Positions 1 through 64,000 of a stretch of 64,000 nt of DNA are shown piece by piece. A program made the translations under genes and the position numbers. Location of the stretch: positions 391,066 to 455,065 of the forward strand of contig NC_088636.1 in assembly GCF_036013475.1 (NCBI RefSeq), written 5' to 3'. The notes under the pieces were generated by a model. The model made no database searches, was not told the origin of the DNA, and was given only the letters and a program-made list of their open reading frames with translations. The stretch's first letter is position 1. Each line of letters opens with the position of its first letter. The stretch is from Columba livia (lineage: Eukaryota).

Positions 1-1270
1 CAAATAACCCAATTTTGGGGTCAAATGTCCTGTATTTGGGGTCAAATAACCCATTTTTAGGGTCAAATAGCCCATTTTTAGGGTCACCGAGTCCATTTTT
101 GGGGTCAAATAACCCATTTTTGGGGGTCAAATAACCCATTTTTGGGGCCAAATAACCCATTTTTGGGGTCAAACAACCCAATTTTGGGGTCAAGCAAGCC
201 ATTTCTGGGGGTCAAACAAGCCATTTTTGGGGTCAAATAGCCCATTTTTGGGGTCAAACAGCCCATTTTTGGGGTCACCGAGTCCATTTTTGGGGCCAAA
301 TAACCCATTTTTAGGGTCAAATATCCCCTTTTTGGGGTCAAACAAGCCATTTTTGGGCTCAAATAGTCCATTTTTGGGGCTCAAATAGCCCATTTTTGGG
401 GTCAAATAACCCATTTTTGGGGTCAAACAAGCCATTTTTGGGGTGGCCGAGGCCGTTTCTGGGGTCACTGCGGCTGTTTTTGGGGTCAAATAACCCATTT
501 TTGGGGTTGAATAACCCATTTTTAGGGTCACTGAAGCCATTTTTGGGGTCAAACAACCCATTTTTGGGGTCAAAGAACCCATTTTTGGGGTCAAATAACC
601 CGTTTTTGGGGTCAAATAACCCGTTTTTGGGGTCAAACAAGCCGTTTTTGGGGTCAAATAACCCACTTTTAGGGCCAAATAACCCACTTTTAGGGGTCAA
701 ACAACCCATTTTGGGGTCAAATAACCCAGTTTTGGGGTGGCCGAGGCCGTTTTTGGGGTCAAACAAGCCATTTTTGGGGTCAAATAACGCATTTTTGGGG
801 GTCAAAGAATCCATTTTTGGGGCCAAATAACCCATTTTTGGGGTCAAATAACCCAATTTTGGGGTCAAACAAGCCGTTTTTGGGGGTCAAAGAATCCATT
901 TTTGGGGCCAAATAACCCATTTCTGGGGTCAAATGTCCTGTTTTTGGGGTCAAATGTCCTGTTTTTGGGGTCAAATAACCCGTTTTTGGGGTCGCCGAAG
1001 CAATTTTTGGGGTCAAATAACCACTTTTAGGGTCAAACAACCCAATTTTGGGGTCAAACAACCCAATTTTGGGGTCAAATAACCCAATTTTGGGGTCAAA
1101 CAAGCCATTTTTGGGGTTGAAAAAGCCATTTTGGCATCGAATAACCCATTTTTGGGGTCAAATAACCCATTTCTGGGGTCAAATAACCCATTTTTGGGGT
1201 CAAACAAGCCGTTTTTGGGGTCAAACAAGCCGTTTTTGGGGTCACCGGTGCCGTTTTTGGGGCGGAATAC
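1..1270. repeat. Tandem satellite, about 21-22-bp unit (GGGGTCAAATAACCCATTTTT and variants)
   Basis: Visible head-to-tail periodicity across the whole segment. The ORFs on both strands are repeat artefacts. Confidence 0.9.
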
Positions 1271-1280
1271 CCGTTTTTGG

Positions 1281-1417
1281 TCAGGTGGTGCGCGCGCGGG
1301 CGCCGGGCGGGAAGAGGTCGAGGCCGGTGCGCAGGATCTGCTGCTCCAGCGCCTGGTGCCGCTTCATGTCCCACAGCACCTTGTCCAGCGCCGCGCGCCG
1401 CGCCACGCGGCCGGCCC
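1281..1417 (-). CDS. PAGR1: PAGR1 terminal coding exon (stop at 1281-1283)
   Basis: The acceptor is tttcggcag at 1418-1419 on the minus strand. The translation is [45 protein letters not shown], compared with human [30 protein letters not shown]. Confidence 0.8.
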
Positions 1418-1426
1418 CTGCCGAAA

Positions 1427-2770
1427 CACCCCAAATCAGACCAAATCCACCCAAATCAGCCCAAATCTGCACCTTGTCCAGCGCCGCGCGCCGCGCCACG
1501 CGGCCGGCCCCTGCCGAAAACACACCAAATCAGACCAAATCCACCCAAATCCACCCAAATCTGCACCTTGTCCAGCGCCGCGCGCCGCGCCACGCGACCG
1601 GCCCCTGCCGAAAACACACCAAATCAGACCAAATCCACCCAAATCCACCCAAATCTGCACCTTGTCCAGCGCCGCGCGCCGCGCCACGCGGCCGGCCCCT
1701 GCCGAAACACCCCAAATCAGACCAAATCCACCCAAATCCACCCAAATCTGCACCTTGTCCAGCGCCGCGCGCCGCGCCACGCGACCGCCCCCTGCCCAAA
1801 TACCCCAAATCAGACCAAATCTGCCCATATCTGACCAAATCTGCCCAAATCCGCCCAAATCTGCACCTTGTCCAGCGCCGCGCGCCGCGCCACGCGACCG
1901 GCCCCTGCAAATACACCAAATCAGACCAAATCTGCCCAAATCAGCCCAAATCTGCACCTTGTCCAGCGCCGCGCGCCGCGCCACGCGACCGGCCCCTGCC
2001 GAAATACACCAAATCAGACCAAATCAGACCAAATCTGCACCGCGCCACGCGACCAACCCCTGCCGAAACACCCCAAATCAGCCCAAATCTGCCCAAATCT
2101 GCCCAAATCAGCCCAAATCAGCCCAAATCTGCCCAAATCTGCCCAAATCAGACCAAATCTGCCCAAATCTGCACCCTGTCCAGCGCCGCGCGCCGCGCCA
2201 CGCGACCGCCCCCTGCCCAAATACCCCAAATCAGACCAAATCTGACCAAATCAGCTCAAATCCGCCCAAATCAGCCCAAATCCGCCCCAAATCAGCCCAA
2301 ATCGGCCCAAATCAGCTCAAATCCGCCCCAAATCCGCCCCAAATCCACCCCGCGCCACGCGACCGCCCCCTGCAAATACACCAAATCAGACCAAGTCAGC
2401 CCAAATCTGCACCGCGCCACGCGACCGGCCCCTGCCGAAAACAGCACAAATCAGCCCAAATCTGCCCAAATCCACCCCAAATCCGCCCCAAATCCGCCCC
2501 GCGCCACGCGACCGCCCCCTGCCCAAAATACACCAAATCAGCCCAAATCAGCCCAAATCTGCACCGCGCCACGCGACCCGCCCCTGCCAAAAATACACCA
2601 AATCAGCCCAAATCTGCCCAAATCCACCCCAAATCCACAAAAATCAGCCCAAATCAGCCCAAATCCGCCCCAAATCCACCCAAAATCCGCCCCAAATCCG
2701 CCCCAAATCAGCCCAAATCTGCACCGCGCCACGCGCCCGCTCCCTGCCAAAAACAGCCCCTTTCAGCCCA
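1427..2770. repeat. Tandem array of about 120-bp units (plus truncated roughly 60-bp units) that copies the PAGR1 exon-3 acceptor and its first 45 nt
   Basis: Each unit contains caccttgtccagcgccgcgcgccgcgccacgcgRccgScccctgccgaaa, which is the reverse complement of the PAGR1 acceptor plus exon 3 start, followed by (accaaatcNNcccaaatc)n. Confidence 0.85.
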
Positions 2771-3010
2771 AATCTGCACCATGGGGGGGGTTGGGGGGGG
2801 GTTGGGGGGGTTTGGAGGGATTGAGGGGGGGTTGAGGGGGGGTTTGGGGGGGTTGGGGGGGGGTTGAGGGGGGGTTGGGGGGGATTGAGGGGGGTTGGGG
2901 GGGGTTTGAGGGGGGGTTTGGGGGGGGTTGGGGGGGTTTGGAGGGATTTAGGGGGGGTTTGGGGGGTTTGGGGGGGGTTTTTGGGGGGTTTTTTAGGGAG
3001 TTTTGGGGGG
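2771..3010. repeat. G-rich tract (G5-9 T/A)n
   Basis: Runs of gggggggg separated by tt or a. It has G-quadruplex potential on the plus strand. Confidence 0.8.
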
Positions 3011-3039
3011 AAAGGCGTTGGGGTCAATGGGTGATGTGT

Positions 3040-4262
3040 GGGGGGTAATTAAGGGGTTAACTAAGGGGTTAACTAAGGGACTAACGAGGGCAGTAGCGGT
3101 AATTAGGGGCTAACGAGGGCAGTGAAGCGGTAATTAGGGGCTAACGAGGGCAGTGAAGGGGTAATTAGGGGCTAACGAGGGCAGTGAAGCGGTAATTAGG
3201 GGCTAACGAGGGCAGTGAAGCGGTAATTAGGGGCTAACGAGGGCAGTGGAGCGGTAATTAGGAGCTAACGAGGGCAGTGAAGGGGTAATTAGGGGCTAAC
3301 GAGGGCAGTGGGGGTAATTAGGGGCTAACGAGGGCAGTGGGGTAATTAGGGGCTAACGAGGGCAGTAGCGGTAATTAGGGGCTAACGAGGGCAGTGGGGG
3401 TAATTAGGGGCTAACGAGGGCAGTAGCGGTAATTAGGGGCTAACGAGGGCAGTAGCGGTAATTAGGGGCTAACGAGGGCAGTGAAGGGGTAATTAGGGGC
3501 TAACGAGGGCAGTGAAGGGGTAATTAGGGGCTAACGAGGGCAGTGGGGGTAATTAGGGGCTAACGAGGGCAGTGGGGGTAATTAGGGGCTAACGAGGGCA
3601 GTGGGGGTAATTAGGGGCTAACGAGGGCAGTGGGGGTAATTAGGGGCTAACGAGGGCAGTGGGGGTAATTAGGGGCTAACGAGGGCAGTGGGGGTAATTA
3701 GGGGCTAACGAGGGCAGTGGGGGTAATTAGGGGCTAACGAGGGCAGTGGGGGTAATTAGGGGCTAACGAGGGCAGTGGAGCAGTAATTAGGGGCTAACGA
3801 GGGCAGTGAAGGGGTAATTAGGGGCTAACGAGGGCAGTGGAGCGGTAATTAGGGGCTAACGAGGGCAGTAGAGCGGTAATTAGGGGCTAACGAGGGCAGT
3901 GGAGCAGTAATTAGGGGCTAACGAGGGCAGTGAAGGGGTAATTAGGGGCTAACGAGGGCAGTGGAGTGGTAATTAGGGGCTAACGAGGGCAGTGAAGGGG
4001 TAATTAGGGGCTAACGAGGGCAGTGGAGCAGTAATTAGGGGCTAACGAGGGCAGTGAAGGGGTAATTAGGGGCTACCGAGGGCAGTAGAGCGGTAATTAG
4101 GGGCTAACGAGGGCAGTGGAGTGGTAATTAGGGGCTAACGAGGGCAGTGGAGTGGTAATTAGGGGCTAACGAGGGCAGTGAAGCGGTAATTAGGGGCTAA
4201 CGAGGGCAGTGGGGGTAATTAGGGGCTAACGAGGGCAGTGGAGTGGTAATTAGGGGCTAACG
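3040..4262. repeat. Tandem satellite, about 31-bp unit (GGTAATTAGGGGCTAACGAGGGCAGTGAAGC)
   Basis: About 38 near-identical copies, with variants containing gtagcg and gtggag. Confidence 0.9.
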
Positions 4263-4270
4263 AGGCTCAC

Positions 4271-4353
4271 CGTGTGCGCGGCGCCGGTCGATCAGCGGCC
4301 GCTGCGGCGCCACCGGCTCGTCCTCAAACTCGAACTGCGGCACCACCGGGGGC
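4271..4353 (-). CDS. PAGR1: PAGR1 coding exon 2
   Basis: The acceptor is cccgcag and the donor is GTGAGC on the minus strand. The translation is KPPVVPQFEFEDEPVAPQRPLIDRRRAH, compared with human [24 protein letters not shown]. Phases link exon 1 (2 nt) and exon 3 (1 nt over). Confidence 0.8.
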
Positions 4354-4374
4354 CTGCGGGACAACGGCCGCTCA

Positions 4375-5600
4375 CCGGGGGCGGGGCCTGGGGGGGGCGG
4401 GGCCAGGGGGGCGGGGTCCATGGGGGCACACGGTCCAATGGGGGGGCAGCGTCCAAGTTGGAGGGGGGCGGGGTCCAAGGTGGAGGGGGCAGGGTCCAAG
4501 GTGGAGGGGGTGGGGCCCATGGAGGGGGCGGGGCCCAAGGTGGAGGGGGGCGGGGTCCAAGGTAGATGGGGGCGGGGCCCAAGGTGGAGGGGGCGGGGTC
4601 CAAGGTAGAGGGGGGCGGGGCCATGGAGGGGGGCGGGGTCCAAGGTGGATGGGGCGGGGCCCATGGAGGGGGGCGGGGTCCAAAGTGGATGGGGCAGGGC
4701 CCATGGAGGGGGGCGGGGTCCAAAGTGGATGGGTCGGGGCCAATGGAGGGGGGCGGGGTCCAAGGTGGAGGGGGGGCGGGGTCCAAGTGGATGGGGCGGG
4801 GCCCATGGAGGGGGCGGGGCCTAAGGTGGAGGGGGCGGGGTCCAAAGTGGATGGGGCGGGGCCCATGGAGGGGGGCGGGGTCCAAGGTGGAGGGGGGGCG
4901 GGGTCCAAAGTGGATGGGGCGGGGCCCATGGAGGGGGGCGGGGTCCAAGGTGGCGGGGGGACGGGGTCCAAAGTGGATGGGGCGGGGCCCAAGGTGGAGG
5001 GGGGCGGGGCCCCAGGTGGAGGGGGCGGGGCACATGGAGGGGGGGCGGGGTCCAAGGTGGAGAGGGGCAGGGTCCAACGTAGAGGGGGCGGGGCCCATGG
5101 AGGGGGGGCAGGGTCCAATGTGGCGGGGGGCGGGGTCCAAGGTGGAGGGGGTGGGGCCCATGGAGGGGGCGGGGTCCAAGGTGGAGGGGCGGGGTCCAAA
5201 GTGGATGGGGCGGGGCCTATGGAGGGGGGCGGGGTCCAAGGTGGAGGGGGGGCGGGGTCCAAAGTGGATGGGGCGGGGCCTATGGAGGGGGGAGGGGTCC
5301 AAGGTGGAGGGGGGGCGGGGTCCAAGGTGGATGGGGCGGGGCCCATGGAGGGGGGAGGGGTCCAAGGTGGAGGGGGGGCGGGGTCCAAAGTGGATGGGGA
5401 TGGGCCCATGGAGGGGGGCAGGGTCCAAGGTGGAGGGGGGGCGGGGCCCCAGGTGGAGGGGGGCGGGGCCCATGGAGGGGGGCGGGGTCCAAAGTGGATG
5501 GGGGTGGGCCCATGGAGGGGGGCGGGGTCCAAGGTGGAGGGGGGGCGGGGTCCAAGGTGGATGGGGCGGGGCCCCAGGTGGAGGGGGGCGGGGCCCATGG
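4375..5600. repeat. Tandem satellite, about 39-bp unit (GGGGCGGGGTCCAAGGTGGAG + GGGGCGGGGCCCATGGAG)
   Basis: A regular alternation of TCCAAGGTGGA and CCCATGGAG sub-units sits within PAGR1 intron 1. The long ORFs here are artefacts. Confidence 0.9.
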
Positions 5601-5960
5601 AGGGGCCAGGAGTTCTGAGGGACCCAAATAGGGGACCCAGGAGTTCTGAGGGACCCAGGCGTCCGGGAGAGGGCCCAAATAGGGGACCCAGGAGTTCTGA
5701 GGGACCCAAGTAGGGGACCCAGGCGTTCGGGAGGGACCCAAGTAAGGGACCCAGGCATTCGCGAGGGACCCAAGTAGGTGACCCAGGCGTTCGGGAGGGA
5801 CCCAAATAGGGGACCCAGGCGTTCGGGAGGGACCCAAGTAAGGGACCCAGGCGTTCGGGAGGGACCCAAGTAGGGGACCCAGGCGTTCGGGAGGGACCCA
5901 AGTAGGGGACCCAGGCGCTCGGGAGGGACCCAAGTAGGGGACCCAGGCGCTCGGGAGGGA
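5600..5960. repeat. Tandem satellite, about 33-bp unit (GGGACCCAAGTAGGGGACCCAGGCGTTCGGGAG)
   Basis: About 10 copies. It belongs to the GGGACCCAGG family. Confidence 0.85.
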
Positions 5961-5977
5961 CCCAGCCCCGCCCTCAC

Positions 5978-6282
5978 TTGTCCGGCCTCTCCTGCGGCGG
6001 CTCCTCGCTGCTCTCGCAGGCGGGCGCCGCCTCCCGCAGGGGGGTGGGCGGTCTCCGCGGCCTGGCCGGCCGCCGCAGCTCCAGCGTGCCGCGCTGCGCG
6101 ATCAGCTCCAGCAGCCGCCGGATCTCGGGGGGCGCGGGCGCCCACCCCCCGCCTTCCTCCTCCTCCTCCTCCTCATCGCTGCGCGGCACGCACCAATCAG
6201 CGTCGTCCGTGGCCCAATTGGCGGCGGCGGCGGACCAATGGGCGTCCGAGGGGGCGGGGCCGGGGGCGGGGTCGGCGTCCAT
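5978..6282 (-). CDS. PAGR1: PAXIP1-associated glutamate-rich protein 1 (PA1), coding exon 1 including the start codon
   Basis: Minus-strand ATG at 6282-6280. The translation is [101 protein letters not shown]. It matches the conserved PA1 core DWCVPCSDEE...[20 protein letters not shown]...PRRPPTPE. The exon ends at a GTGAGG donor; the apparent TGA stop belongs to that donor. It is phase 2, which is consistent with exon 2. Confidence 0.8.
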
Positions 6283-6389
6283 CGTGGCGGGCGCGGGGGG
6301 GGGGCGGGGAATTGGCGGGAAGGGCGGGCTCGGCCGCCATGGCTGCGGAGCGGGAAACGGCCTGCGGAAACGGGGCTGAGTCAAAAAAT

Positions 6390-7250
6390 GGGGATTTATG
6401 TAAAAAATCGGGGGGTTGCCTCAAAAAATGGGGGGTTTACCTCAGTAAATGGGGGGTTTGCCTCAAAAAATGGGGGGTTTACGTCAAAAAATGGGGGATT
6501 TACCTCAATAAATGGGGGATCTACGTCAAAAAATGAGGGGTTTGCCTCAAAAAATGGTGATTTACCTCAAAAAATGAGGATTTACCTCAAAATATGGGGG
6601 GTTTGCCTCAAAAAATGGTGATTTACCTCAAAAAATGGGGATTTACCTCAATAAATGGGGATTTACCTCAATAAATGGGGATTTACGTCAAAAAATGGGG
6701 ATTTACCTCAATAAATGGGGGATTTACCTCAAAAAATGGTGATTTACCTCAAAAAATGAGGGATTTACCTCAATAAATGGGGATTTACCTGAAAAAATGA
6801 GGGATTTACCTCAAAAAATGAGGATTTACCTCAAAAAATGAGGGATTTACCTCAAAAAATGAGGATTTACCTCAAAAAATGAGGGATTTACCTCAAAAAA
6901 TGGGCATTTACCTCAAAAAATGGTGATTTACCTCAAAAAATTGGGATTTACCTCAATAAATGGGGATTTACCTCAAAAAATGGGGATTTACCTCAATAAA
7001 TGGGGGATTTACCTCAATAAATGGGGGATTTACCTCAAAAAATGAGGATTTACCTCAAAAAAATGAGGGATTTACCTCAAAAAAGGGATTTACCTCAAAA
7101 AATGGGGATTTATGGCAAAAAATGGAGATTTATGTTCAAAAAATGGGGGGTTTGCCTCAAAAACGGGGATATTTACCCCAAAAATGGGTCATTTACCTCA
7201 CAAATTCAATTATTTGCCTGAAAAATGGGTTATTTGCCCCAAAAAATCAA
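6390..7250. repeat. Tandem satellite, about 30-33-bp unit (TCAAAAAATGGGGATTTACCTCAATAAATGGGG)
   Basis: Regular periodicity. It is AT-richer than the surrounding sequence. Confidence 0.9.
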
Positions 7251-7279
7251 ACTGGTCTGTACTGGGGTCACTGGTCTAT

Positions 7280-7620
7280 ATTGGGAATGGGGGTCACTGG
7301 CTCCTACCGGCTCCGGCGTCTCCTCAATGGCGGCGGCGTCGGCGATGGGGGGGGCGCGTCCCCTCTCTCCCCGCCCACCCCTTCATCCGCCCAATCACCG
7401 CGCTCTCCCTTCCCCACATCGCCCTCTCATTGGCCGCCCCACTTTAACCCCGCCCCCTTCCTGGCACGCCCGCTTCCTTTCACTTCACCTCCCTCCCCGC
7501 GCATGCGCGCCCCGTCCTCCGGCGGGTTCCACTTCCGGTTGGCCGCCAGCGCCATCTTGGATCCGGGGCGGCGGGAAAAGCGGCGGCACCGGGGGGTCCC
7601 CCCCCCCCCCAGGGTGATTT
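7280..7620. promoter_or_regulatory. CpG-island promoter, probably bidirectional (PAGR1 on the minus strand, a TAOK2 5' non-coding exon on the plus strand)
   Basis: A unique GC-rich block lies between satellites. It contains a CCAAT box at 7391-7395 and an inverted one at 7428-7433, an NRF1 site GCGCATGCGC at 7499-7508, an ETS/GABP site CACTTCCGG at 7530-7538 and a YY1 core GCCATCTTGG at 7551-7560. Downstream on the plus strand are tandem GAGAACGGT repeats with GGTGAG donors (7757-7790) that could end a 5' UTR exon. Confidence 0.45.
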
Positions 7621-7779
7621 TGGGGTGAAATCGGCGCTTTTTGGGGCTCCCCGGAGCGGGGGGGGCGGCCGGACCCCCCCCCCGGAGCTGCAGCCGCCGG
7701 GGGGGGGAAACCTATGGGGCCGGGCGGGACCCACAAGCGGAGACAGCGGAGAGAACGGTGAGAACGGTGAGAACGGTGA

Positions 7780-9892: not shown

Positions 9893-10002
9893 ATGCCGTC
9901 GCTCAGCCCACGGATCCCGGGCTGTTCCGCCCCGAAGATCCCGAGAGCCTGTTTGGTGACCTGCGCGAGATCGGCCACGGCAGCTTCGGCGCCGTCTACT
10001 GC
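9893..10002 (+). CDS. TAOK2: TAO kinase 2, first coding exon (putative ATG at 9893; both boundaries uncertain)
   Basis: The kinase frame 9913-9999 encodes [29 protein letters not shown], matching the TAOK1/2 N-terminus and the start of the GxGxxG loop. ATG CCG TCG (MPS, as in TAOK1 MPS...) is 1 nt out of frame with it. The only GT donors (10003 and 10008) do not give the phase-1 junction that exon 2 requires. Confidence 0.6.
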
Positions 10003-10009
10003 GTTGAGT

Positions 10010-11170: not shown

Positions 11171-11187
11171 CCCACAACCGCCCCCAG

Positions 11188-11258: not shown

Positions 11259-11269
11259 GTAACTGAGAC

Positions 11270-12475: not shown

Positions 12476-12493
12476 GTGGGTCTGTGCCCACAG

Positions 12494-52320: not shown

Positions 52321-52328
52321 GGACTCAC

Positions 52329-52425: not shown

Positions 52426-52429
52426 CTGA

Positions 52430-53500: not shown

Positions 53501-53518
53501 CTCCTGGGTCCCCGGTAC

Positions 53519-53679: not shown

Positions 53680-53699
53680 CTGCGACAGCGACACGGGGG

Positions 53700-56600
53700 G
53701 GAGGGGCGGTTGGGGGGGTGGTCCCATCGCCCCCATTGTCCCCATTGTCCCATTGTCCCCATTGTCCCATTGTCCCCATTGTCCCATTGTCCCATTGTCC
53801 CCATTGTCCCCATTGTCCCCATTGTCCCATTGTCCCATTGTCCCCATTGTCCCATTGTCCCCATTGTCCCCATTGTCCCCAATGTCCCCATTGTCCCATT
53901 GTCCCATTGTCCCATTGTCCCCATTGTCCCATTGTCCCCATTGTCCCCATTGTCCCCATTGTCCCCATTGTCCCCATTGTCCCATTGTCCCCATTGTCCC
54001 CATTGTCCCATTGTCCCATTGTCCCATTGTCCCCATTGTCCCATTGTCCCCATTGTCCCCATTGTCCCCAATGTCCCCATTGTCCCATTGTCCCCATTGT
54101 CCCCATTGTCCCATTGTCCCCATTGTCCCCATTGTCCCCATTGTCCCATTGTCCCCATTGTCCCATTGTCCCCATTGTCCCCATTGTCCCCATTGTCCCC
54201 ATTGTCCCATTGTCCCCATTGTCCCATTGTCCCCAATGTCCCATTGTCCCATTGTCCCATTGTCCCATTGTCCCATTGTCCCCATTGTCCCATTGTCCCA
54301 TTGTCCCCATTGTCCCATTGTCCCCATTGTCCCATTGTCCCATTGTCCCCTTGTCCCCTTGTCCCATTGTCCCATTGTCCCATTGTCCCCATTGTCCCAT
54401 TGTCCCCTTGTCCCATTGTCCCATTGTCCCCTTGTCCCATTGTCCCATTGTCCCCATTGTCCCATTGTCCCATTGTCCCATTGTCCCCATTGTCCCATTG
54501 TCCCCATTGTCCCCATTGTCCCCAATGTCCCCATTGTCCCCATTGTCCCATTGTCCCCATTGTCCCATTGTCCCCATTGTCCCCATTGTCCCATTGTCCC
54601 ATTGTCCCATTGTCCCCATTGTCCCATTGTCCCCAATGTCCCATTGTCCCATTGTCCCATTGTCCCCATTGTCCCATTGTCCCCATTGTCCCCTTGTCCC
54701 CACTGTCCCCATTGTCCCCAATGTCCCATTGTCCCATTGTCCCCATTGTCCCCATTGTCCCATTGTCCCCATTGTCCCCATTGTCCCATTGTCCCCATTG
54801 TCCCCACTGTCCCATTGTCCCATTGTCCCATTGTCTGTCCCATTGTCCCCATTGTCCCATTGTCCCATTGTCCCCATTGTCCCATTGTCCCATTGTCCCA
54901 TTGTCCCCATTGTCCCCATTGTCCCCATTGTCCCCTTGTCCCCATTGTCCCATTGTCCCCATTGTCCCATTGTCCCCATTGTCCCCATTGTCCCCATTGT
55001 CCCCATTGTCCCATTGTCCCATTGTCCCCATTGTCCCATTGTCCCCATTGTCCCCATTGTCCCCAATGTCCCCATTGTCCCCATTGTCCCATTGTCCCCA
55101 TTGTCCCATTGTCCCCATTGTCCCCATTGTCCCATTGTCCCATTGTCCCATTGTCCCCATTGTCCCATTGTCCCATTGTCTGTCCCATTGTCCCCATTGT
55201 CCCATTGTCCCATTGTCCCATTGTCCCATTGTCCCATTGTCTGTCCCATTGTCCCCATTGTCCCCTTGTCCCCACTGTCCCCATTGTCCCCAATGTCCCA
55301 TTGTCCCATTGTCCCATTGTCCCCATTGTCCCCATTGTCCCATTGTCCCATTGTCCCCATTGTCCCCACTGTCCCATTGTCCCCATTGTCCCATTGTCCC
55401 ATTGTCCCATTGTCTGTCCCATTGTCCCCATTGTCCCATTGTCCCATTGTCCCCATTGTCCCATTGTCCCCATTGTCCCATTGTCCCCATTGTCCCATTG
55501 TCCCATTGTCCCCATTGTCCCATTGTCCCCATTGTCCCCTTGTCCCATTGTCCCATTGTCCCCATTGTCCCATTGTCCCATTGTCCCATTGTCCCATTGT
55601 CCCCATTGTCCCCTTGTCCCCATTGTCCCATTGTCCCCATTGTCCCATTGTCCCCATTGTCCCCATTGTCCCCATTGTCCCCATTGTCCCATTGTCCCAT
55701 TGTCCCCATTGTCCCATTGTCCCCATTGTCCCCTTGTCCCATTGTCCCATTGTCCCCATTGTCCCCATTGTCCCATTGTCCCCATTGTCCCCATTGTCCC
55801 CATTGTCCCATTGTCCCCATTGTCCCCATTGTCCCCATTGTCCCCATTGTCCCCATTGTCCCCATTGTCCCATTGTCCCCATTGTCCCATTGTCTGTCCC
55901 ATTGTCCCATTGTCCCCATTGTCCCATTGTCCCATTGTCCCCATTGTCCCCATTGTCCCCAATGTCCCCATTGTCCCATTGTCCCATTGTCCCATTGTCC
56001 CCATTGTCCCATTGTCCCCATTGTCCCATTGTCCCATTGTCCCCATTGTCCCCATTGTCCCCATTGTCCCATTGTCCCCATTGTCCCCATTGTCCCATTG
56101 TCCCATTGTCCCATTGTCCCCATTGTCCCCATTGTCCCCATTGTCCCCTTGTCCCCATTGTCCCATTGTCCCCATTGTCCCATTGTCCCCATTGTCCCCA
56201 TTGTCCCATTGTCCCCATTGTCCCCATTGTCCCATTGTCCCCATTGTCCCATTGTCCCATTGTCCCCATTGTCCCATTGTCCCCATTGTCCCCTTGTCCC
56301 ATTGTCCCATTGTCCCCATTGTCCCCATTGTCCCATTGTCCCCATTGTCCCCATTGTCCCATTGTCCCATTGTCTGTCCCATTGTCCCATTGTCCCCATT
56401 GTCCCATTGTCCCATTGTCCCCATTGTCCCATTGTCCCATTGTCCCATTGTCCCCATTGTCCCATTGTCCCATTGTCCCATTGTCCCCATTGTCCCATTG
56501 TCCCATTGTCCCCATTGTCCCCATTGTCCCCATTGTCCCCATTGTCCCATTGTCCCCATTGTCCCATTGTCCCCATTGTCCCATTGTCCCCAATGTCCCC

Positions 56601-58190
56601 ATTGTCCCCATTGTCCCATTGTCCCCATTGTCCCATTGTCCCCATTGTCCCACTGTCCCCATTGTCCCATTGTCCCATTGTCCCATTGTCCCCACTGTCC
56701 CCATTGTCCCATTGTCCCATTGTCCCCATTGTCCCATTGTCCCCATTGTCCCACTGTCCCCATTGTCCCATTGTCCCCATTGTCCCCATTGTCCCCTTGT
56801 CCCATTGTCCCATTGTCCCATTGTCCCCATTGTCCCCATTGTCCCATTGTCCCATTGTCCCATTGTCCCATTGTCCCCATTGTCCCATTGTTCCATTGTC
56901 CCCATTGTCCCATTGTTCCATTGTCCCCATTGTCCCATTGTCCCATTGTCCCATTGTCCCATTGTCCCATTGTCCCCATGTCCCCATGTCCCCATTGTCC
57001 CATTGTCCCATTGTCCCCATTGTCCCCATTGTCCCATTGTCCCCATTGTCCCATTGTCCCCATTGTCCCCATTGTCCCATTGTCCCCATTGTCCCCTTGT
57101 CCCCATTGTCCCATTGTCCCCATTGTCCCCATTGTCCCCATTGTCCCCATTGTCCCATTGTCCCCATTGTCCCATTGTCCCATTGTCCCATTGTCCCCAT
57201 TGTCCCATTGTCCCATTGTCCCAATGTCCCCATTGTCCCCATTGTCCCATTGTCCCCATTGTCCCATTGTCCCCATTGTCCCACTGTCCCCATTGTCCCA
57301 TTGTCCCATTGTCCCATTGTCCCCATTGTCCCCATTGTCCCATTGTCCCCATTGTCCCCTTGTCCCCATTGTCCCATTGTCCCCATTGTCCCCATTGTCC
57401 CCATTGTCCCCATTGTCCCATTGTCCCCATTGTCCCATTGTCCCATTGTCCCATTGTCCCATTGTCCCATTGTCCCCATTGTCCCATTGTCCCCAATGTC
57501 CCCATTGTCCCATTGTCCCCATTGTCCCATTGTCCCATTGTCCCCAATGTCCCATTGTCCCATTGTCCCATTGTCCCATTGTCCCCATTGTCCCCATTGT
57601 CCCATTGTCCCCATTGTCCCCATTGTCCCATTGTCCCCATTGTCCCCATTGTCCCATTGTCCCATTGTCCCATTGTCCCATTGTCCCCATTGTCCCATTG
57701 TCCCATTGTCCCATTGTCCCCATTGTCCCATTGTCCCATTGTCCCATTGTCCCCATTGTCCCCATTGTCCCATTGTCCCCATTGTCCCATTGTCCCATTG
57801 TCCCATTGTCCCCATTGTCCCATTGTCCCCAATGTCCCCATTGTCCCATTGTCCCATTGTCCCATTGTCCCATTGTCCCCATTGTCCCATTGTCCCCATT
57901 GTCCCCATTGTCCCATTGTCCCCAATGTCCCCATTGTCCCATTGTCCCATTGTCCCATTGTCCCATTGTCCCCATTGTCCCATTGTCCCCATTGTCCCCA
58001 TTGTCCCATTGTCCCCAATGTCCCCATTGTCCCATTGTCCCCATTGTCCCCATTGTCCCATTGTCCCCATTGTCCCCATTGTCCCATTGTCCCATTGTCC
58101 CATTGTCCCATTGTCCCATTGTCCCATTGTCCCCATTGTCCCATTGTCCCATTGTCCCATTGTCCCCCTGTCCGTCCCGTGTCCGTCCGT
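53700..58190. repeat. Tandem satellite, 8/9-bp unit (CCCATTGT/CCCCATTGT), 4.5 kb, stop-free in all six frames
   Basis: It fills MFAP4 intron 1. It produces six ORFs of 1500-1700 aa (GQWDNGTMG... and PIVPLSHCP...) that are artefacts. Confidence 0.9.
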
Positions 58191-58195
58191 CTCAC

Positions 58196-58295
58196 CCCGG
58201 GGGCTGATGGGTTGTCCCCCTCCCAGCGCCACCAGTGTCACCAGTGCCAGCAGCAGCACCTGCAGTGGGGACGTATGGGGACCTATAGGATCCAT
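58196..58295 (-). CDS. MFAP4: Microfibril-associated glycoprotein 4, exon 1 (start codon and signal peptide)
   Basis: Minus-strand ATG at 58295-58293. The translation is MDPIGPHTSPLQVLLLALVTLVALGGGQPISPR, which has an n-region, a hydrophobic core and a GGG cleavage region. The exon ends at a GTGAGA donor in phase 1, matching the 2-nt start of the next exon. Confidence 0.65.
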
Positions 58296-60060
58296 GGGGG
58301 GGTCGGGGGGTCCCTATAGGATCCATAGGGGTGTCTGGGGGTTCCTATAGGATCCATGGGGGGGTCGGGGGGTCCCTATAGGATCCATAAGGGGTCCATA
58401 TAAGATCCATAGGGGGATCTGGGGGTTCCTATAGGATCCATAGGGGGGTCGGGGGGTCCCTATAGGATCCATGGGGGGGTCTGGGGGTCCCAATAGGATC
58501 TACAGGAGGTCCCTATAGGATCCATAGGGGGTCAGTTTGATCACTATAGGATCCATAGAGGGTCCCTATAGGATCCATAGGGGGTCCCTATAGGATTCAT
58601 AGGGACGTCTGCGGGTCCCCATGGGATCCATAGGGGGATCCCTATAGGATCTATGGGGGACAGGATTTTGATCCTTATAGGACCCATAGGGGGCTCTGGG
58701 GCTCCCTGTAAGATCCGTAGTGGGGGGGGTTGATCCCTATAGGATCCATAGGGGGATCTGGTGGTCCCTATAGTATCTATAGGGGGGTCTGGGGGTCCCT
58801 ATAGGATCCATACGGGGGTCAGGGGGTCCCTATAGAATCCATAAGGGGGTCTGGGGGTCCCTATAGGATCCATAGGGGGGTCTGGGGTCCCTATAGGATC
58901 CATAGGAGGTCCCTATAGGATCCATAGGGGGTCCATATAAGATCCATGGGGGTGTCTGGGGGTCCCTATAGAATTCATAGGGGGTCCACATAGGATCCAT
59001 GGGGGGGTCTGCGGGTCCCTATAGAATCCATAGAGGGGTCTGGGGTCCCTAGAGGATCCATAGGGGGTCAGGGGGTCCCTATAGGATCCATAGGGGGGTC
59101 AGGGGGTCCCTATAGAATCCATAGGGGGTCCATATAAGATCCATAGGGCGTTGGGGGGTCCCTATAGAATCCATAGGGGGGTTTGGGGGTCCCTATAGGA
59201 TCCATAGGGGGTCCCTATAAGATCCATAGGGGGTTGGGGGTCCCTATAGAATCCATAGGGGGGTCTGGGGGTCCCTATAGAATCCATAAGGGGGTCTGGG
59301 GGTCCCTATAGGATCCATAGGGGGTCCCTATAAGATCCATAGGGGGTTGGGGGTCCCTATAGGATCCGTAAGGGGGTCTGGGGGTCCCTATAGGATGCAT
59401 AGGGGGGTCTGGGGGTCCCTATAGGATGCATAGGGGGTCCCTATAGGATCCATGGGGGGTCCATATAAGATCCATAGGGAGGTCTGGGGTCCCTATAGGA
59501 TCCATAGGGGGGTCGGGGGGTCCCTATAGAATCCATACAGGGGTCTGGGGTCCCTATAAGATCCATAGGGGGTCCTTATAATATCCATAGGGGGGTCGGG
59601 AGGTCCCTATAGAATCCATACGGGGGTCTGGGGGTCCCTATAGGATCCATGGGGGGCCATATAAGATCCATGGGGGGGTCAGGGGGTCCCTATAGAATCC
59701 ATAGGGGGGTTTGGGGATCCCTATACGATCCATAGGGAGTCTGGGGTCCGTATAGGATCCATAGGGGGTCCCTATAAGATCCATAGGGGGTTGGGGGTCC
59801 CTATAGAATCCATAAGGGGGTCTGGGGGTCCCTATAGGATGCATAGGGGGTTCCTATAAGATCCATAGGGGGTCGGGGGTTCCCTATAGGATGCATAGGG
59901 GGGTTTGGGGGTCCCTATAGGATCCATGGGGGGTCCATATAAGATCCATGGGGGGGTCTGGGGGTCCCTATAGGATCCGTAAGGGGGGTCTGGGGTCCCT
60001 ATAGGATGCATAGGGGGGTCTGGGGGTCCCTATAGGATGCGTAGGGTCCCCATAGGATCC
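58270..60060. repeat. Tandem satellite, about 30-bp unit (CCCTATAGGATCCATAGGGGGGTCTGGGGGT)
   Basis: About 60 copies, immediately upstream of the MFAP4 ATG, followed by a degenerate tail at 60300-60880. Confidence 0.9.
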
Positions 60061-60889
60061 CGGGTGTCCGTCCGTCCCGCCCGTACCTCCGTCCGTCCGT
60101 CCATGGCGCCGCAGCCGCTTCCCCCCCCGCCCCCATCGGGGCCCCTCCCCGGACGCCTGGGTCCCCTCCCGGACGCCTGGGTCCATTCCCGGACGCCTGG
60201 GTCCCTTCCCGGACGCCTGGGTCCCCCCAGCCCAGGGAGGCCCCGATGGGGGAAACGGCCCCAAACGGGCCATTTTGAGGCGGATTTGATGGTTTGAGAG
60301 GGGAAAAAAAGCCACTTTACAGCCACTTTTCTATAGGGGAAACGCCCACATTACACATTCTATACATTCTATACATTTTGCAGGGAAAACCTCCCTAAAA
60401 TCGCCATTTTTATAGGCAAACCCCCCCAATCGTGCCACTCTATAACAAATACACCTTTAAATCCGCTTAATCTATAGGTGACGCGCCCTTAAACGCGTTT
60501 ACATTCAGCCTATATACATTAAACTTTAAGTGCCGTTGCTCTATAGGGGAAACCCCCTAAATCTGCCCCAAAATGCGAAATACGCCTTAAATCCCGCCCT
60601 ATTTACACAACGTATGCATTAATTGTGTTTTCTGCGCGCGATACGCCCCTAATTCCCCTTTTCTATACGTTATATACCCCATAACTTATCTTTCTATAGG
60701 GGAAACGCCCTTAGGTTGGTCCCTGAAGGGGCCGTGGGCAAAACTTGGCTCCCTATAGCAAATATACCTTTAAATTTGCCCGGCTATAGGTCCAGGGCTT
60801 AGCTCCGCCCCCTATATATGTATTTCTATACGTACATAGTTTAATACTTACGTAATGTTTTATATATATATAAAAGTTTTGCCCCCCCC

Positions 60890-61150
60890 CCCCGGCCTCC
60901 TCACAAGATGGCGGCGCCGCGCGGGGCACGCTGGGAGTTGTAGTCCCGCCCCCTCGCCCCTCAGTGTTCCTCAAGCCTGGGCGGACTACAACTCCCAGCG
61001 TGCACCGCGCCGGGCAGCCGCGGCGGCCGCCACAAGATGGCGGGCGGCGCGCGGTGCACGCTGGGAGTTGTAGTCCGCCTAGCCGTTAAGACTATAGGGT
61101 GGGCGGGGCTTGAGGACTACATTTCCCGGCGTGCCCCGCGCTTCCGCGCT
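60890..61150 (+). promoter_or_regulatory. CpG-island promoter with a duplicated YY1 + ZNF143(SBS) module
   Basis: A YY1 core CACAAGATGGCGG occurs at 60903-60915 and 61031-61043. ZNF143/Staf-type motifs ACTACAACTCCCAGCGTGC occur at 60926-60946 (reverse), 60983-61005 (forward), 61054-61076 (reverse) and 61115-61136 (forward, ACTACATTTCCCGGCGTGC). The region is GC- and CpG-rich. Confidence 0.55.
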
Positions 61151-61321
61151 GACTTCCGGCGCTCGGCCTGGACCGGAAGAGAAGGCGGGGGCGCGCGCGT
61201 GGCGTCGCCTCTTCGCGTCTCCTCGGGTTTATTTTGGTTTTAATTCGTTTTTTGGCTTCGAAAGCACAAAAAAGGACCAAAAAAAGGGTGAAAAACCCTC
61301 AAATCGGCGGCAGCGGAGCCG
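61150..61321 (+). other. Putative non-coding first exon of an unidentified plus-strand gene, with a GTGAGG donor at 61322
   Basis: A unique, ATG-free segment follows the promoter and ends in ...GGCGGCAGCGGAGCCG|GTGAGG. The rest of the window downstream is satellite. Confidence 0.35.
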
Positions 61322-61329
61322 GTGAGGAC

Positions 61330-64000
61330 CCGGGGGGGGGTTTTTGGGGGGTTTTGGGGCCGTTGGCGGCGGTTGGTTGGGGGGGGAAAATGGCGGTTTG
61401 AGGGGAAAAAGGGTTAAAAAAGGGGGTTTTGTGAGGAAAAATGGCGATTTTGAGGGAAAAATGGGCGTTTTGTGAGGAAAAATGGGGGTTTATGAGGAAA
61501 AGTGGGGGGTTTTGGGGGGAAAAATGGGGTTTTAGGGGGAAAAATGGGGGGTGGGGGGGGCGGGGAAATGGCGCGCGGAAAAGGGGCTTTTTTGGGGGGA
61601 AAAAACGGGGTTTTTGGGGCTTTGTGAGGGGGAAAGGGGGGGACGGGGGATTTGGGGTGAAAAAGGGTGATTTTGGGGGCGATTTGAGGTGAAAAAGGGG
61701 CATTTTGAGGTGAAAAAGGGGCATTTTGAGGGGGGAAAGGGGCATTTTTTGGGGGGGAAATGGCGGTTTGGGGGGAGATTTGAGGAGAAAATTGGGGTTT
61801 TTGAGGGAAAAAGTGGAATTTTTGGAGGGGAAAAGTGGGAAGTTTGGCGGGAAAAGGGGATTTTGAGGGGAAAAAGGGAGTTTTGGGGTTTATGGGGGAA
61901 AACGTGAGGAGAAAAGGGGATTTTGGGGGGGAAAAGGGCGATTTTGGGGGCGGGTTTGAGGCGGGAAAATGAGGGAAAATTGGAGGGTTTTAGGCCAAAA
62001 AAAAATGAGGTTTTTAGGTAAAAAAATGAGGGTTTTGGGCAAAAAGATCTTTGGGGCAAAAAAAGGGAGTTTGGGGACAAAAATTTGAGATTTGGGGGTA
62101 AAAAAAGTGAGAGTTTTAGGCAAAAATTGGAGATTTGGGGGCGAAAAATGCGAATTTGGGGCAAAAAAATTGAGGTTTTGAGGCGAAAAAATTCGAGGTT
62201 TTGGGTCAAAAGGAATTTGAGGTTTTTGGGCCAAAAAAAGGAGGTTTTGGGGTGCAAAAAATTGAGTTTTTTTGGGGGAAAAAGTGAGATTTTTAGGTAA
62301 AAAATAAGAGATTTTTAGGCAAAAAAGTTTGAGGTTTTTAGGCAAAAAAACTTGAGATTTTTAAGGCAAAGAAGTTGAGATTTTGGGGCAAAAAAGAGAG
62401 ATTTGGGGGCAACGAAAAAAGGGATTTTTGGCAATAAAAAAGTGAGATTTTTGAGTGAAAAAATTGAGATTTTTAGGCAAAAGAAATCGAGATTTTTGGG
62501 GAAAAAATTGATTTTTTGAGGCAAAAGAAAATCGAGATTTTGGGGCAAAAAAGTTGAGATTTGGGGGTAAAAAAATAAGGTTTTTGGGCAAAAAAAACCA
62601 GTTTTAGGTGAAAAAAATTTGGGGTTTTGAGCAAAAAAAAAAAAAAAGGAGATTTTGGGTGAAAAAATTGAAGTTTTTAGGCAAAGTAAATGGAGATTTT
62701 TGGGCAAAAATGATATTTTTAAGGCATAAAAGTGGGGTTTTTAGGGGAAAAATGGGAGGTTTTTGGCCAAAAAAAAGAGGTTTTTGGGACAAAAAAAGTG
62801 AGGTTTTTAGGTGAAAAAAATGAGGTTTTTAGGGCAAAAAATTGAGGGTTTTGGGTTAAAAATTGAGGTTTTTGGGTGAAAAAATTGAGGTTTTTAGGTT
62901 AAAAAATTGATGTTTTTAGATTAAAAATTGAGGTTTTTGGGGCAAAAAATTGAGGTTTTTGGGGCAAAAAAGTGAGATTTTTAGGTTAAAATTGAGGCTT
63001 TTAGGTGAAAAATTGAGGTTTTTAGGTTAAAAATTGAGTTTTTTGGGGCAAAAAAGTGAGATTTTTAGGTTAAAAAATTGAGGTTTTTAGGGCAAAAAAT
63101 TGAGATTTTTGGGTTAAAAAATTGAGGTTTTTGGGTTAAAAAATTGAGGTTTTTAGGTTAAAAATTGAGGTTTTTAGGTTAAAAAATTGAGGTTTTTAGG
63201 TTAAAAATTGAGGTTTTTAGGTTAAAAATTGAGGTTTTTAGGTTAAAAATTGAGGTTTTTAGGTTAAAAAATTGAGGTTTTTGGGGCAAAAAATTGAGAT
63301 TTTTGGGTTAAAAAATTGAGGTTTTTAGGTTAAAAAAATGAGGTTTTTGGGGCAAAAAATTGAGATTTTTGGGGCAAACAAGTGAGGTTTTTAGGCCAAA
63401 AAATGAGATTTTGGGGGGCAAAAAATGTTGAGATTTTGGGGTTAAAAAATGGAGATTTTTAGGTAAAAATAATTGAGGGTTTTGGGCCAAAAAAATGAGG
63501 TTTTTTGGGCAAAAAAGTGGGATTTTGGGGCCAAAAAAAGTAGGATTTTTTGGGTGAAAAAATAGTGGGATTTTTGGGGGCAAAAAAGTGAGATTTTGGG
63601 GCCAAAACGTGGGGTTTTTAGTTCAAAAAGAGAGACTTTTTGGGTCAAAAAAGTGAGGTTTTGGGGCTGAAAATGTGAGGGTTTTGGGCCAAAGAATTGG
63701 GGTACGGGGGGGAATGGGGAGAAATGGGGGGGGGAATTGGGGGTGCAGGGAGGAACCACGGGGTGAAATGGGGGGGGAATTGGGGTGCAGGGAGGAACCA
63801 TGGGGTGAAATGGGGGGGGAATTGGGGTGCAGGGAGGAACCACGGGGTGAAATGGGGGGGGAATTGGGGGTGCAGGGAGGAACCATGGGGTGAAATGGGG
63901 GGGGAATTGGGGGTGCAGGGAGGAACCATGGGGTGAAATGGGGGGGGAATTGGGGGTGCAGGAGGAACCATGGGGTGAAATGGGGGGGGAATTGGGGGTG
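61330..64000. repeat. A/G-rich tandem satellite, about 20-bp units (GAAAAATGGGGGTTTTGAGG / AAAAATTGAGGTTTTTAGGTT)
   Basis: It starts directly after the putative exon-1 donor at 61322 and continues to the end of the window. Confidence 0.85.

Follow-up and report, generated by a model that had tools for sequence, protein, structure and literature searches.

The 64-kb window examined here (64,000 nucleotides of Columba livia contig NC_088636.1, positions 391,066 to 455,065; coordinates below are those of the window unless stated otherwise) holds four genes, PAGR1, TAOK2, CDIPT and MFAP4, and very probably represents dot-microchromosome euchromatin of the pigeon, orthologous to the part of chicken chromosome 38 that contains MFAP4 and genes of the human 16p11.2 type. 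On this reading the four are functional housekeeping or matrix genes, and short units of 8-42 bp, often arranged in 50-330-bp higher-order units, have expanded locally until they filled introns and spacers, a process referred to as sequence stuttering. The locus is a new instance of this known phenomenon, which was described on chicken dot chromosomes as repetitive introns, intraspecific length variation and the copying of exon edges, splice sites included, to the intron next to them (Hron et al., 2026, PMC12954441). A search of the literature on the four genes and chicken microchromosomes found nothing, and one for Columba livia and dot chromosomes found no pigeon-specific description.

Extent and Composition of the Tandem Arrays

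Tandem arrays called by Tandem Repeats Finder (TRF) at a score of at least 50 cover 54,175 of the 64,000 bases (84.6%; 79% in a stricter count at a score of at least 200), compared with 0.05% in a shuffled window that served as control. An earlier reading of the letters alone (the sequence-only reading) had put satellite coverage at about 85%, in agreement with this figure. Non-overlapping tiling gave 81 array segments, which collapse to 36 k-mer families when segments with common recurrent 10-mers are joined. This is close to the earlier count of at least 35 satellites; however, not all of them are distinct, as two superfamilies, summing to 22.4 kb, recur across introns and genes. One of these (11.6 kb in TAOK2 and MFAP4) links the CCCCA[C/T]A...CTGCC and CACAAGTGTGGGG types, and the other, CCCATTGNC (10.8 kb), is present in TAOK2 intron 10, TAOK2 exon 12 and MFAP4 introns 1 and 4. 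Both strands carry arrays of GGGACCCAGGCGTTC, which are found in PAGR1, two TAOK2 introns and MFAP4 and also upstream of the latter gene.

By bases, 94.7% of intron sequence is array, in keeping with the claim that the introns are filled, and 19 of the 20 introns measured are 62-99% array. Intron repeats are bounded by the exons, the unique flank beside a splice site having a median length of 12.5 bp (range 0-164). The 9,825 non-repeat bases comprise 38% coding sequence (CDS), 17% CpG islands and 44% located elsewhere, in untranslated regions, intergenic islands and splice flanks. The proposal that unique sequence is essentially confined to exons, splice flanks and CpG islands was therefore accurate as to the brevity of the flanks but not as to the 44% of unique bases outside CDS and CpG islands. 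About 50 non-repeat islands hold exon-like translations, and 991 of the 4,759 CDS nucleotides lie inside TRF calls, including the 9-bp array in TAOK2 exon 12 that is discussed below.

Individual arrays are 0.1-4.6 kb long and their units are diverse, match one another at 64-96% and show higher-order structure; many units are palindromic (e.g., CCCACAAGTGTGGG). The periodicity and repeat-fraction profiles that had been proposed as a check returned, besides the array coverage given above, a period of about 10 bp: base autocorrelation over the whole window peaks at lags of 10, 20, 30, 40 and so on up to 120, and the period lies close to a multiple of 10.4 bp for 60% of the bases in short-unit arrays, relative to 35% expected. 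Minisatellite unit lengths in multiples of 10-11 bp, as found in the window, are also those of the zebra finch, in which more than 70% of dot-chromosome intron sequence is tandem repeat (bioRxiv 10.1101/2025.10.17.683159). The window has a GC content of 58% and an overall CpG observed/expected ratio (o/e) of 0.34, and packs four genes and a probable fifth promoter into 64 kb. Scans of the whole window for Rfam families (at gathering thresholds) and for tRNAs found none. We considered and rejected the possibility that this is a centromeric or heterochromatic satellite block, as the arrays are short and diverse, and conserved exons and CpG islands lie between them. A uniform G-rich orientation of the arrays relative to transcription was also rejected, the sense strand of TAOK2 being G-rich at 12-16 kb and C-rich at 20-26 kb.

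Copies of Exon Borders in the Adjacent Introns

We repeated the exon screen of Hron et al. by BLASTn of the exons against the exon-masked window, with a threshold of 42.1 bits and a shuffled maximum of 34.6 bits. Exon-border copies were identified for PAGR1 exon 3 (seven), CDIPT exon 1 (one) and MFAP4 exon 4 (two of its donor end and three of its acceptor end), so that three of the genes show exon stuttering. These copies score 57-95 bits, all above the threshold; all lie in the adjacent intron and derive from the exon border, at 93-100% identity and with splice signals kept. The seven PAGR1 copies (1469-2212, minus strand; 63-77 bits) consist of the first 42 nt of exon 3, each with the acceptor TTTCGGCAG/GGGCC, where the slash marks the splice site, and they recur one-for-one in a second pigeon assembly. 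They fall within PAGR1 intron 2, in which a 93-94-bp unit derived from exon 3 occupies 1376-2025 and decays until about 2777. The CDIPT copy comprises the last 36 nt of exon 1 and is located in intron 1 at 34782-34817, with the base before its GT altered.

For MFAP4, intron 4 holds two copies (49048-49099 and 49272-49323) of the last 52 nt of exon 4, each running on through the GT donor into 30 nt or more of intron flank, and intron 3 holds three copies (50629-50676, 51249-51296 and 51490-51537) of the 48 nt that open exon 4, acceptor included. In the acceptor-end copies the exon fragment meets the satellite at a common CTGC. The number of such extra acceptor-end copies is three in C. livia, one in C. 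guinea and 18 in Patagioenas; the latter lie in MFAP4 intron 3 (22424-25008 of the Patagioenas locus, L003), are spaced by about 90-250 bp and are 98-100% identical to the exon. So close a match suggests that they are still being homogenised with the real exon.

The pigeon and chicken loci are alike in their exon-bounded, imperfect expansions, exon-border copies, affected spacers and GC-rich, gene-dense context, and the exon-derived units of the window are clearly local. Chicken MFAP4 is itself among 115 exon-stuttering genes (PMC12954441 supplement). Euchromatin of avian dot chromosomes in general resembles the window in its high GC content and intronic minisatellites (Huang et al., 2023, PNAS, PMC9974502; bioRxiv 10.1101/2025.10.17.683159), and the band-tailed pigeon is among the species surveyed genome-wide (bioRxiv 10.1101/2025.10.17.683159). 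Whereas those studies are genome-wide summaries, the pigeon window provides a gene-by-gene anatomy, splice-site decoys and a comparison across assemblies.

A more distant parallel can be drawn to Drosophila. The fertility genes of the Drosophila Y have conserved exons between introns of simple satellite, which must be transcribed and spliced; these introns are megabase-sized and heterochromatic, belong to testis-specific genes and contain one or few satellites each. In contrast, the pigeon introns are 0.5-4.8 kb long and euchromatic, belong to broadly expressed types of gene and contain many different units. The satellite-filled giant introns of Drosophila Y-linked fertility genes were reportedly reviewed by Fingerhut and Yamashita in 2022 (cited in PMC12954441).

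Persistence of Array Units Across Pigeons

The window was compared with loci from a second C. livia assembly (L001, GCA_032206205.1), C. guinea (L002) and Patagioenas fasciata (L003). L001, a 34-kb contig, is collinear with the window from position 1 to about 33.4 kb, and the unique islands of the two are 94-100% identical, mostly 98-100%. In total 34 intervals between conserved anchors were compared, of which 24 are common to the second pigeon assembly, and in all 24 the repeat family is identical. Thirteen of these 24 agree in length within 35 bp; in nine the difference is about 150-1,500 bp, the window being longer in some and shorter in others (e.g., 683 versus 1,354 bp). Within TAOK2, the array interval of intron 3 is 3,181 bp in the window versus 1,680 bp in the second assembly, that of intron 5 is 2,153 versus 1,351 bp and that of intron 8 is 509 versus 1,337 bp, and intron 7 differs (1,935 versus 939 bp) by 996 bp, or 83 units of 12 bp. 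The arrays upstream of the TAOK2 start codon have identical units in both assemblies and measure 1976 and 1948 bp.

C. guinea, at a synonymous divergence (dS) of about 0.02-0.03, and Patagioenas, at 0.08-0.10, mostly carry the same or a related unit in orthologous intervals, with lengths that differ up to four-fold. Units kept across the pigeons include the 175-bp unit of the CDIPT-MFAP4 spacer (175/176 bp in C. guinea and Patagioenas, with an interval of 1.6-1.7 kb), CCCATTGACC of MFAP4 intron 4 and CCCCATTGA of TAOK2 exon 12; units related to those of CDIPT introns 2-5 are likewise found in the orthologous introns of both species. The MFAP4 intron 1 interval is 1.0 kb in C. guinea. Because units are kept at orthologous intervals while lengths change, array identity is old and copy number is labile.

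The same comparison bears on the chromosomal setting. MFAP4 adjoins CDIPT in three pigeon species, and the Patagioenas CDIPT-MFAP4 block is on a chromosome-level record of 2.11 Mb. In chicken, MFAP4 is located at chr38:1.46 Mb, beside SLC5A2, KAT8, PPP4C and ALDOA (PMC12954441 supplement). That the window is dot-chromosome DNA thus appears well supported, if indirectly, and the suggestion in the sequence-only reading of an avian dot chromosome or microchromosome with satellite-expanded introns is backed by the species, by the chromosomes of Patagioenas and chicken and by the published architecture.

In the window PAGR1, TAOK2 and CDIPT are immediate neighbours, followed by MFAP4. We take PAGR1, TAOK2, CDIPT, PPP4C and ALDOA to be neighbours at human 16p11.2, with MVP, SEZ6L2, ASPHD1, KCTD13 and TMEM219 presumably located among the first three, and MFAP4 presumably on 17p. 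Dot chromosomes are reported to have undergone gene loss and rearrangement, with which the pigeon gene order would be consistent.

TAOK2 and the Repeats in Its Predicted Coding Sequence

TAOK2 (9893-28738, plus strand; stop codon 28736-28738) has 12 coding exons, at 9893-10002, 11188-11258, 12494-12596, 15948-15993, 16069-16166, 18657-18770, 20579-20670, 22680-22773, 23300-23381, 24336-24497, 25882-26097 and 27154-28738, which were located by tblastn of bird and fish TAO kinases and encode about 923 aa after the corrections given below. All junctions are GT-AG. The product has a Pfam Pkinase domain and its best solved structure is TAO2 (231 bits versus 209 for TAO3); its closest relative is a Columba livia "hypothetical protein" (P0001, Q9966_016763). 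The sequence-only reading had given exon lengths of 46-305 nt, and although these extremes are exact (CDIPT exon 1 and PAGR1 exon 1), TAOK2 exon 12 is 1,585 nt long. Similarly, its description of intact, phase-consistent exons applies to PAGR1, CDIPT and MFAP4 but not to TAOK2, which as assembled is out of frame up to the middle of exon 5, with exon 12 split over two frames.

The TAOK2 frame is broken at five sites, where a homopolymer run differs by one base from the second assembly. The C-runs at 9907-9910 in exon 1 (which leaves the ATG out of frame with the kinase domain) and at 11188-11192 at the start of exon 2 are one base shorter, and the G-run at 12587-12591 at the end of exon 3 is one base longer. 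The G-run at 16114-16120 in exon 5 has six bases versus five, after which the frame is correct, and the C-run at 27957-27963 in exon 12 has seven versus six. Deletion of one C at 27957 restores a single exon 12 open reading frame (ORF) of 527 codons that ends PWR*. All TAOK2 exon differences between the two pigeon assemblies are changes in the length of C-runs or G-runs, at different sites in each, the second assembly having frame breaks of its own in exons 6 and 8 (near L001 positions 16477 and 19318). As all are homopolymer length changes, which the other assembly lacks while being broken elsewhere, the five breaks are most likely consensus errors of long-read assembly and not biology. The deposited P0001 is affected by such errors: after residue ~170 it contains out-of-frame read-through peptide, and it repeats even the out-of-frame peptides that can be read from the window.

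Two TAOK2 exons contain repeats. Exon 11 has an in-frame (GACGACGGT)n tract (25981-26041, plus strand) that encodes an acidic Asp/Gly run, and the interval containing it measures 86 bp in the window, 71 bp in the second assembly and 59 bp in Patagioenas, the differences being multiples of three. The repeats of exon 12 span 27363-27996 (plus strand) and comprise 45-bp units (27363-27505), 47 copies of the 9-bp CCCCATTGA (27513-27932) and C-rich 9-17-bp units; they are in frame and read as a P/S-rich stretch followed by (P-I-D/G/H)n. In the chromosome-level assembly of Patagioenas, TAOK2 has one frame of 602 codons from the conserved acceptor TTTCAG/GCGGAGGAC, in which the order is P/S-rich stretch, 9-bp array as (P-I-D/G)n and hydrophobic C-terminal domain. 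The exon 12 array of the second pigeon assembly is likewise in frame with the hydrophobic C-terminal domain, and it differs from that of the window by 153 bp, or 17 units of 9 bp (51 codons). The coding status of the exon 12 array is predicted from the ORF, and a repeat of CCCCATTGA is by its nature open in two frames out of three.

The C-terminal domain, which ends PWR, matches two full-length TAO kinases, P0210 (2e-8) and P0211 (2e-4), both with a Pkinase domain. A word-indexed homologue search with the C-terminal 252 aa gave no match, and an exhaustive HMMER search with the same residues identified five relatives. TAOK2 therefore has both ends of the long, alpha-type isoform, a TAO2-like STE20-type kinase domain and a C-terminus ending PWR. 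What lies between them is different: in tblastn with P0210 only residues 9-328 and 917-1027 were matched, in the window and in Patagioenas, and the Ser-rich and coiled-coil middle that other vertebrate TAO kinases have (~590 residues, ~330-915 of P0210) had no detectable counterpart in pigeon TAOK2. In place of the coiled-coil middle the pigeon protein has, after the kinase domain and a linker, the acidic exon and the repeat-bearing exon, a layout like that of another relative, P0208. We propose tentatively, and with slightly more doubt than confidence, that a CCCATTGNC satellite of the intron type grew within the terminal coding exon of TAOK2 and is translated there as (Pro-Ile-Asp/Gly)n, such that stuttering would remodel proteins too. 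In the same proposal the arrays would be long-lived and position-specific, with families that cross genes and persist across pigeon genera, and would not be recent, strictly local accidents.

The arrays of TAOK2 introns 1-3 and 5-10 (all plus strand) are as follows. Intron 1 (10003-11187) is 98% array, with about 110 copies of CGCCCCATAG; intron 2 (11259-12493) is 94% array, with 57 copies of GGGACCCAGGAGTTCTGGGA, a family that is common to TAOK2 introns 2 and 8, PAGR1 intron 1, MFAP4 intron 2 and 60138-60226. Intron 3 (12597-15947) is 95% array, its 20-bp GGGACCCACAAGTGTGGGGC being organised in 113-326-bp higher-order units, and intron 5 (16167-18656) is 94% array, composed of the 12-14-bp units TCCTGCCCCATAGA and TCCTGCCCCACTGA with a 276-bp higher-order unit. 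Three introns are 97% array: intron 6 (18771-20578), with the 21-bp GACCCCCAAGTGTGGGGCTGG (55/75-bp higher order) and the 14-bp TCCCGCCCCACACA; intron 7 (20671-22679), with 169 copies of CTGCCCCACATC; and intron 8 (22774-23299), with 25 copies of CCGAACGCCTGGGTCCCCTC. Intron 9 (23382-24335) is 92% array, of 20-42-bp CCCCTTACCCCATTAATTAC-type units, and intron 10 (24498-25881) holds 138 copies of the 9-bp CCCATTGTC. Upstream of the start codon (7816-9722, plus strand) are the 21-bp CACTTGTGGGGCAGAACCGGG, in 51-135-bp higher-order units, and 35 copies of the 31-bp GTCACTTATGGGTCAGGATTTGGCCCCCTGG.

PAGR1, CDIPT, MFAP4 and Their Flanks

The identities of all four genes given in the sequence-only reading were borne out by Pfam, solved-structure and named-protein matches, and the three non-repeat CpG islands that it listed were found, at 5.85-7.9, 32.85-33.5 and 60.85-61.4 kb.

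PAGR1 (1281-6282, minus strand) has three coding exons, at 5978-6282 (305 nt), 4271-4353 (83 nt) and 1281-1417 (137 nt), that encode 174 aa in a clean ORF with GT-AG sites and consistent phases. The product matches Pfam PAXIP1_C (1.4e-15), and the collinear second pigeon contig has a PAXIP1_C gene annotated at the same position. Intron 1 (4354-5977, minus strand) is 95% array, with 40/63-bp units of GGTCCAAGTGGGGGGGCGGGG at 4432-5597 and a 32-bp GGGACCCAGGCGTTCGGGAGGGACCCAAGTAG array at 5650-5964. Intron 2 (1418-4270, minus strand) is 99% array and contains, in addition to the exon 3-derived unit, a G-rich 10-bp array (2782-3010) and 39 copies of the 31-bp AGGGGCTAACGAGGGCAGTGAGGGGTAATT (3076-4265). 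Downstream of the gene, 59 copies of the 21-bp CAAATAACCCATATTTGGGGT occupy 1-1244. The first CpG island (5851-7900) is located between the divergent PAGR1 and TAOK2 and is split by an 824-bp array of 40 copies of the 20-bp TCAAAAAATGGGGATTTACC (6381-7204) into halves with CpG o/e of 0.88 and 0.73. Ratios of nonsynonymous to synonymous substitution (dN/dS) were not computable for PAGR1 and TAOK2, because too few exons are covered by the comparison loci and because TAOK2 as assembled here is not in frame.

Between TAOK2 and CDIPT the spacer is 73% array (arrays at 28965-32772), with AT-rich 40/83-bp units at 28965-29621, the 22-bp AATTTTGGGGCC at 30085-30587 and 29-285-bp CCAATGGGGACCC units at 30890-32772. 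The second CpG island (32851-33500, plus strand; CpG o/e 1.00) is at the start of CDIPT (33355-40754, plus strand), whose six coding exons, 33355-33400 (46 nt), 35388-35522, 37059-37212, 37930-38011, 38720-38801 and 40582-40754, form a CDS of 672 nt (223 aa), in phase and with GT-AG junctions (the start of exon 5 was set by hand). The protein has a Pfam CDP-OH_P_transf domain and, in the database, most closely matches bird proteins that are named CDIPT; identity to the RefSeq Columba livia CDIPT isoform X2 is 100% over exons 1 and 3-6. CDIPT is annotated by NCBI in several pigeon species, and the gene upstream of it in Patagioenas has a 966-aa product. Intron 1 (33401-35387, plus strand) is 99% array, with 97 copies of CTGGGATGTACTGGGGTGTA, and introns 2-5 (35523-40581, plus strand) are 80-98% array, with G-rich 15-18-bp units (GGGAGGGGGCGTGGTTTG and GGGTGGGGCTAAAGG), 130/148-bp units and 9-10-bp units (AGACTGGTT, GGATGGACTG and ACTGGTCCGT). 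The 4.1-kb array of the CDIPT-MFAP4 spacer (41109-45206) consists of 23 copies of its 175-bp unit.

MFAP4 (45267-58295, minus strand) has five coding exons, at 58196-58295, 53519-53679, 52329-52425, 50277-50459 and 45267-45514, that encode 262 aa in a clean ORF with GT-AG sites and consistent phases. It matches Pfam Fibrinogen_C (9e-64) and scores 387 bits to solved MFAP4 structures versus 247 to FIBCD1. With dN/dS values of 0-0.12 versus C. guinea and Patagioenas, MFAP4 is under strong purifying selection. All of its introns (minus strand) are repetitive: intron 1 (53680-58195; 98% array) has about 520 copies of CCCATTGTC over 4.4 kb; intron 2 (52426-53518; 62%) has 19-20-bp CCCGAACGCCTGGGTCCCT blocks alternating with ~95-bp units in a ~200-bp higher-order repeat; intron 3 (50460-52328; 97%) has the GGGCAGGATGTGGGG family in 172-241-bp higher-order units, plus TATACTGGTC; and intron 4 (45515-50276; 98%) has 466 copies of CCCATTGACC over 4.6 kb. 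Directly upstream of the gene is an array of 63 copies of the 31-bp CCTATAGGATCCATAGGGGGGTCTGGGGGTC (58282-60046), the last unit of which supplies the MFAP4 ATG (ATGGATCCTATAGG..., 58282-58295). Either this array abuts the coding start, or the true start or promoter is elsewhere, e.g., at an untranslated first exon.

The third CpG island (60851-61400, plus strand; o/e 1.08) has no tandem repeats and has a GT donor near 61322. It contains four alternating GGACTACAACTCCCAGCGTGC motifs and two CAAGATGGCGGCG motifs, which we take to resemble ZNF143 and YY1 sites. A fifth gene, extending beyond the window, probably has its promoter and first exon here, and the island looks like a bidirectional housekeeping promoter. 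From 61416 to the end of the window (64000) are 78 copies of an AT-rich 20-22-bp unit, AAAATTGAGGTTTTTGGGCAAA, plus a 42-bp array.

In the Patagioenas locus an annotated gene model of 168 aa with an EF-hand (L003 1-27658, minus strand) extends on the opposite strand over the entire locus, TAOK2, CDIPT and MFAP4 included. This model probably reflects either an annotation artefact or a gene whose exons lie very far apart.

Origin of the Arrays and Alternative Explanations

In the window, arrays are bounded by exons and built into higher-order units, some length changes are of whole units, and duplications extend across exon borders. Such an anatomy could arise if, in a very GC-rich, high-recombination, transposon-poor compartment, units were duplicated and deleted again and again by slippage during replication or by template switching, with gene conversion and unequal or out-of-register recombination acting alongside. 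Purifying selection would halt those expansions that harm most coding exons and the immediate splice signals, and we propose that each array is bounded by exons for this reason. A duplicated segment that happened to overlap an exon border would copy a fragment of exon plus splice site into the intron. Copy number would shift fast, between individuals or assemblies, while the unit at each position would persist across species.

Splicing presumably relies on the short unique flanks and on exon definition, and the main cryptic splice sites in the arrays are the exon-derived decoys. Otherwise, the donor-like NGGTRAG occurs eight times in sense and ten times in antisense within arrays, GTRAGT does not occur in them on either strand, and the acceptor-like Y8NYAG occurs twice in sense versus 19 times in antisense, 14 of the 19 being from one array. 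We considered selection against splice cores as a reading of these counts and set it aside as not interpretable, because repeat units are not independent observations; the scarcity of donor- and acceptor-like cores on both strands is probably a by-product of low complexity.

Several points weigh against reading the locus as stuttering of functional dot-chromosome genes. In chicken no repeats were seen to cross into exons, whereas pigeon TAOK2 exons 11 and 12, as predicted from ORFs, contain them, and coding regions are to that extent not untouched. Chicken stuttering is also described as strictly local in origin, whereas in the pigeon CCCATTGNC and GGGACCCAGGCGTTC recur across genes and unit families are common to several introns; and repeat clusters in chicken differ from those of close relatives (PMC12954441), whereas orthologous pigeon introns mostly keep the same or related units. 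CDIPT has a dN/dS of about 0.55 versus C. guinea and Patagioenas, from few substitutions. The length differences between the two pigeon assemblies could partly be collapse or expansion in assembly and not alleles, the exon models are based on homology, the dot-chromosome assignment is an indirect one made through orthology and the size of the Patagioenas chromosome, and the slippage and recombination mechanism is drawn from the anatomy only.

It is extremely improbable that the arrays are an assembly artefact, in which read stacking or mis-joining of low-complexity long reads would have lengthened introns that are truly short. Dot chromosomes are known to be hard to sequence (bioRxiv 10.1101/2025.10.17.683159), and the five single-base homopolymer breaks in TAOK2 and the differing array lengths of the two pigeon assemblies are what such an artefact might produce. 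However, a read-stacking artefact, which the sequence-only reading had raised, is not what was found: four independent assemblies from three species have the same or related units in most orthologous intervals, more than half of the intervals shared by the pigeon assemblies agree closely in length, the seven PAGR1 exon 3 copies recur one-for-one, and the chicken architecture was verified with raw nanopore reads (PMC12954441). A decaying locus, in which the genes would be pseudogenes or relics in satellite heterochromatin and the TAOK2 frameshifts real, is scarcely more credible. The broken frame of TAOK2, its lack of a detectable Ser-rich and coiled-coil middle and the dN/dS of CDIPT would suit decay, but each break is a homopolymer change that is missing from the other assembly, itself broken at other sites. 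Moreover, PAGR1, CDIPT and MFAP4 are intact with canonical splice sites, MFAP4 has the low dN/dS given above, non-repeat CpG islands stand at gene starts, and CDIPT and the 966-aa product upstream of it are annotated in other pigeons; the short, diverse arrays are also unlike centromeric satellite blocks.

Another explanation, compatible with stuttering as the generating process, is that the arrays are kept by selection, e.g., as G-quadruplex (G4) or hairpin elements phased at ~10 bp that organise recombination, nucleosomes, transcription speed or splicing. We consider this unlikely. Orthologous positions do keep their unit over a dS of about 0.1 even as copy number changes, unit lengths concentrate around multiples of about 10.4 bp as in the finch, several units are palindromic and splice cores are scarce within the arrays. 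Yet neutral concerted evolution of an existing array also predicts persistence over that divergence, array orientation is inconsistent, with G-rich and C-rich sense strands both within TAOK2, and splice motifs are scarce on either strand, a consequence of low complexity. Lengths, in addition, vary up to four-fold with no visible constraint.

Implications of the Pigeon Locus

Sequence stuttering in the pigeon extends known biology (chicken 2023 and 2026; birds 2025-26) and does not break new ground. What the locus offers is a set of conserved genes with ~95% minisatellite introns, in which splice signals lie ~12 unique bases from an array and spare copies of true splice sites are nearby. Being compact and represented in several assemblies, it is suited to tests of how splicing ignores decoys, such as the up to 18 perfect decoy acceptors at Patagioenas MFAP4 exon 4, and to the measurement of array turnover against unit persistence. 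It also carries a practical warning, in that homopolymer errors in long-read assemblies of such regions disrupt reading frames and lead gene prediction astray, as in P0001. If the proposal for TAOK2 exon 12 is true, stuttering reshapes proteins as well as introns, and the locus would allow one to ask whether repeat expansion rewrote the middle of a conserved kinase.

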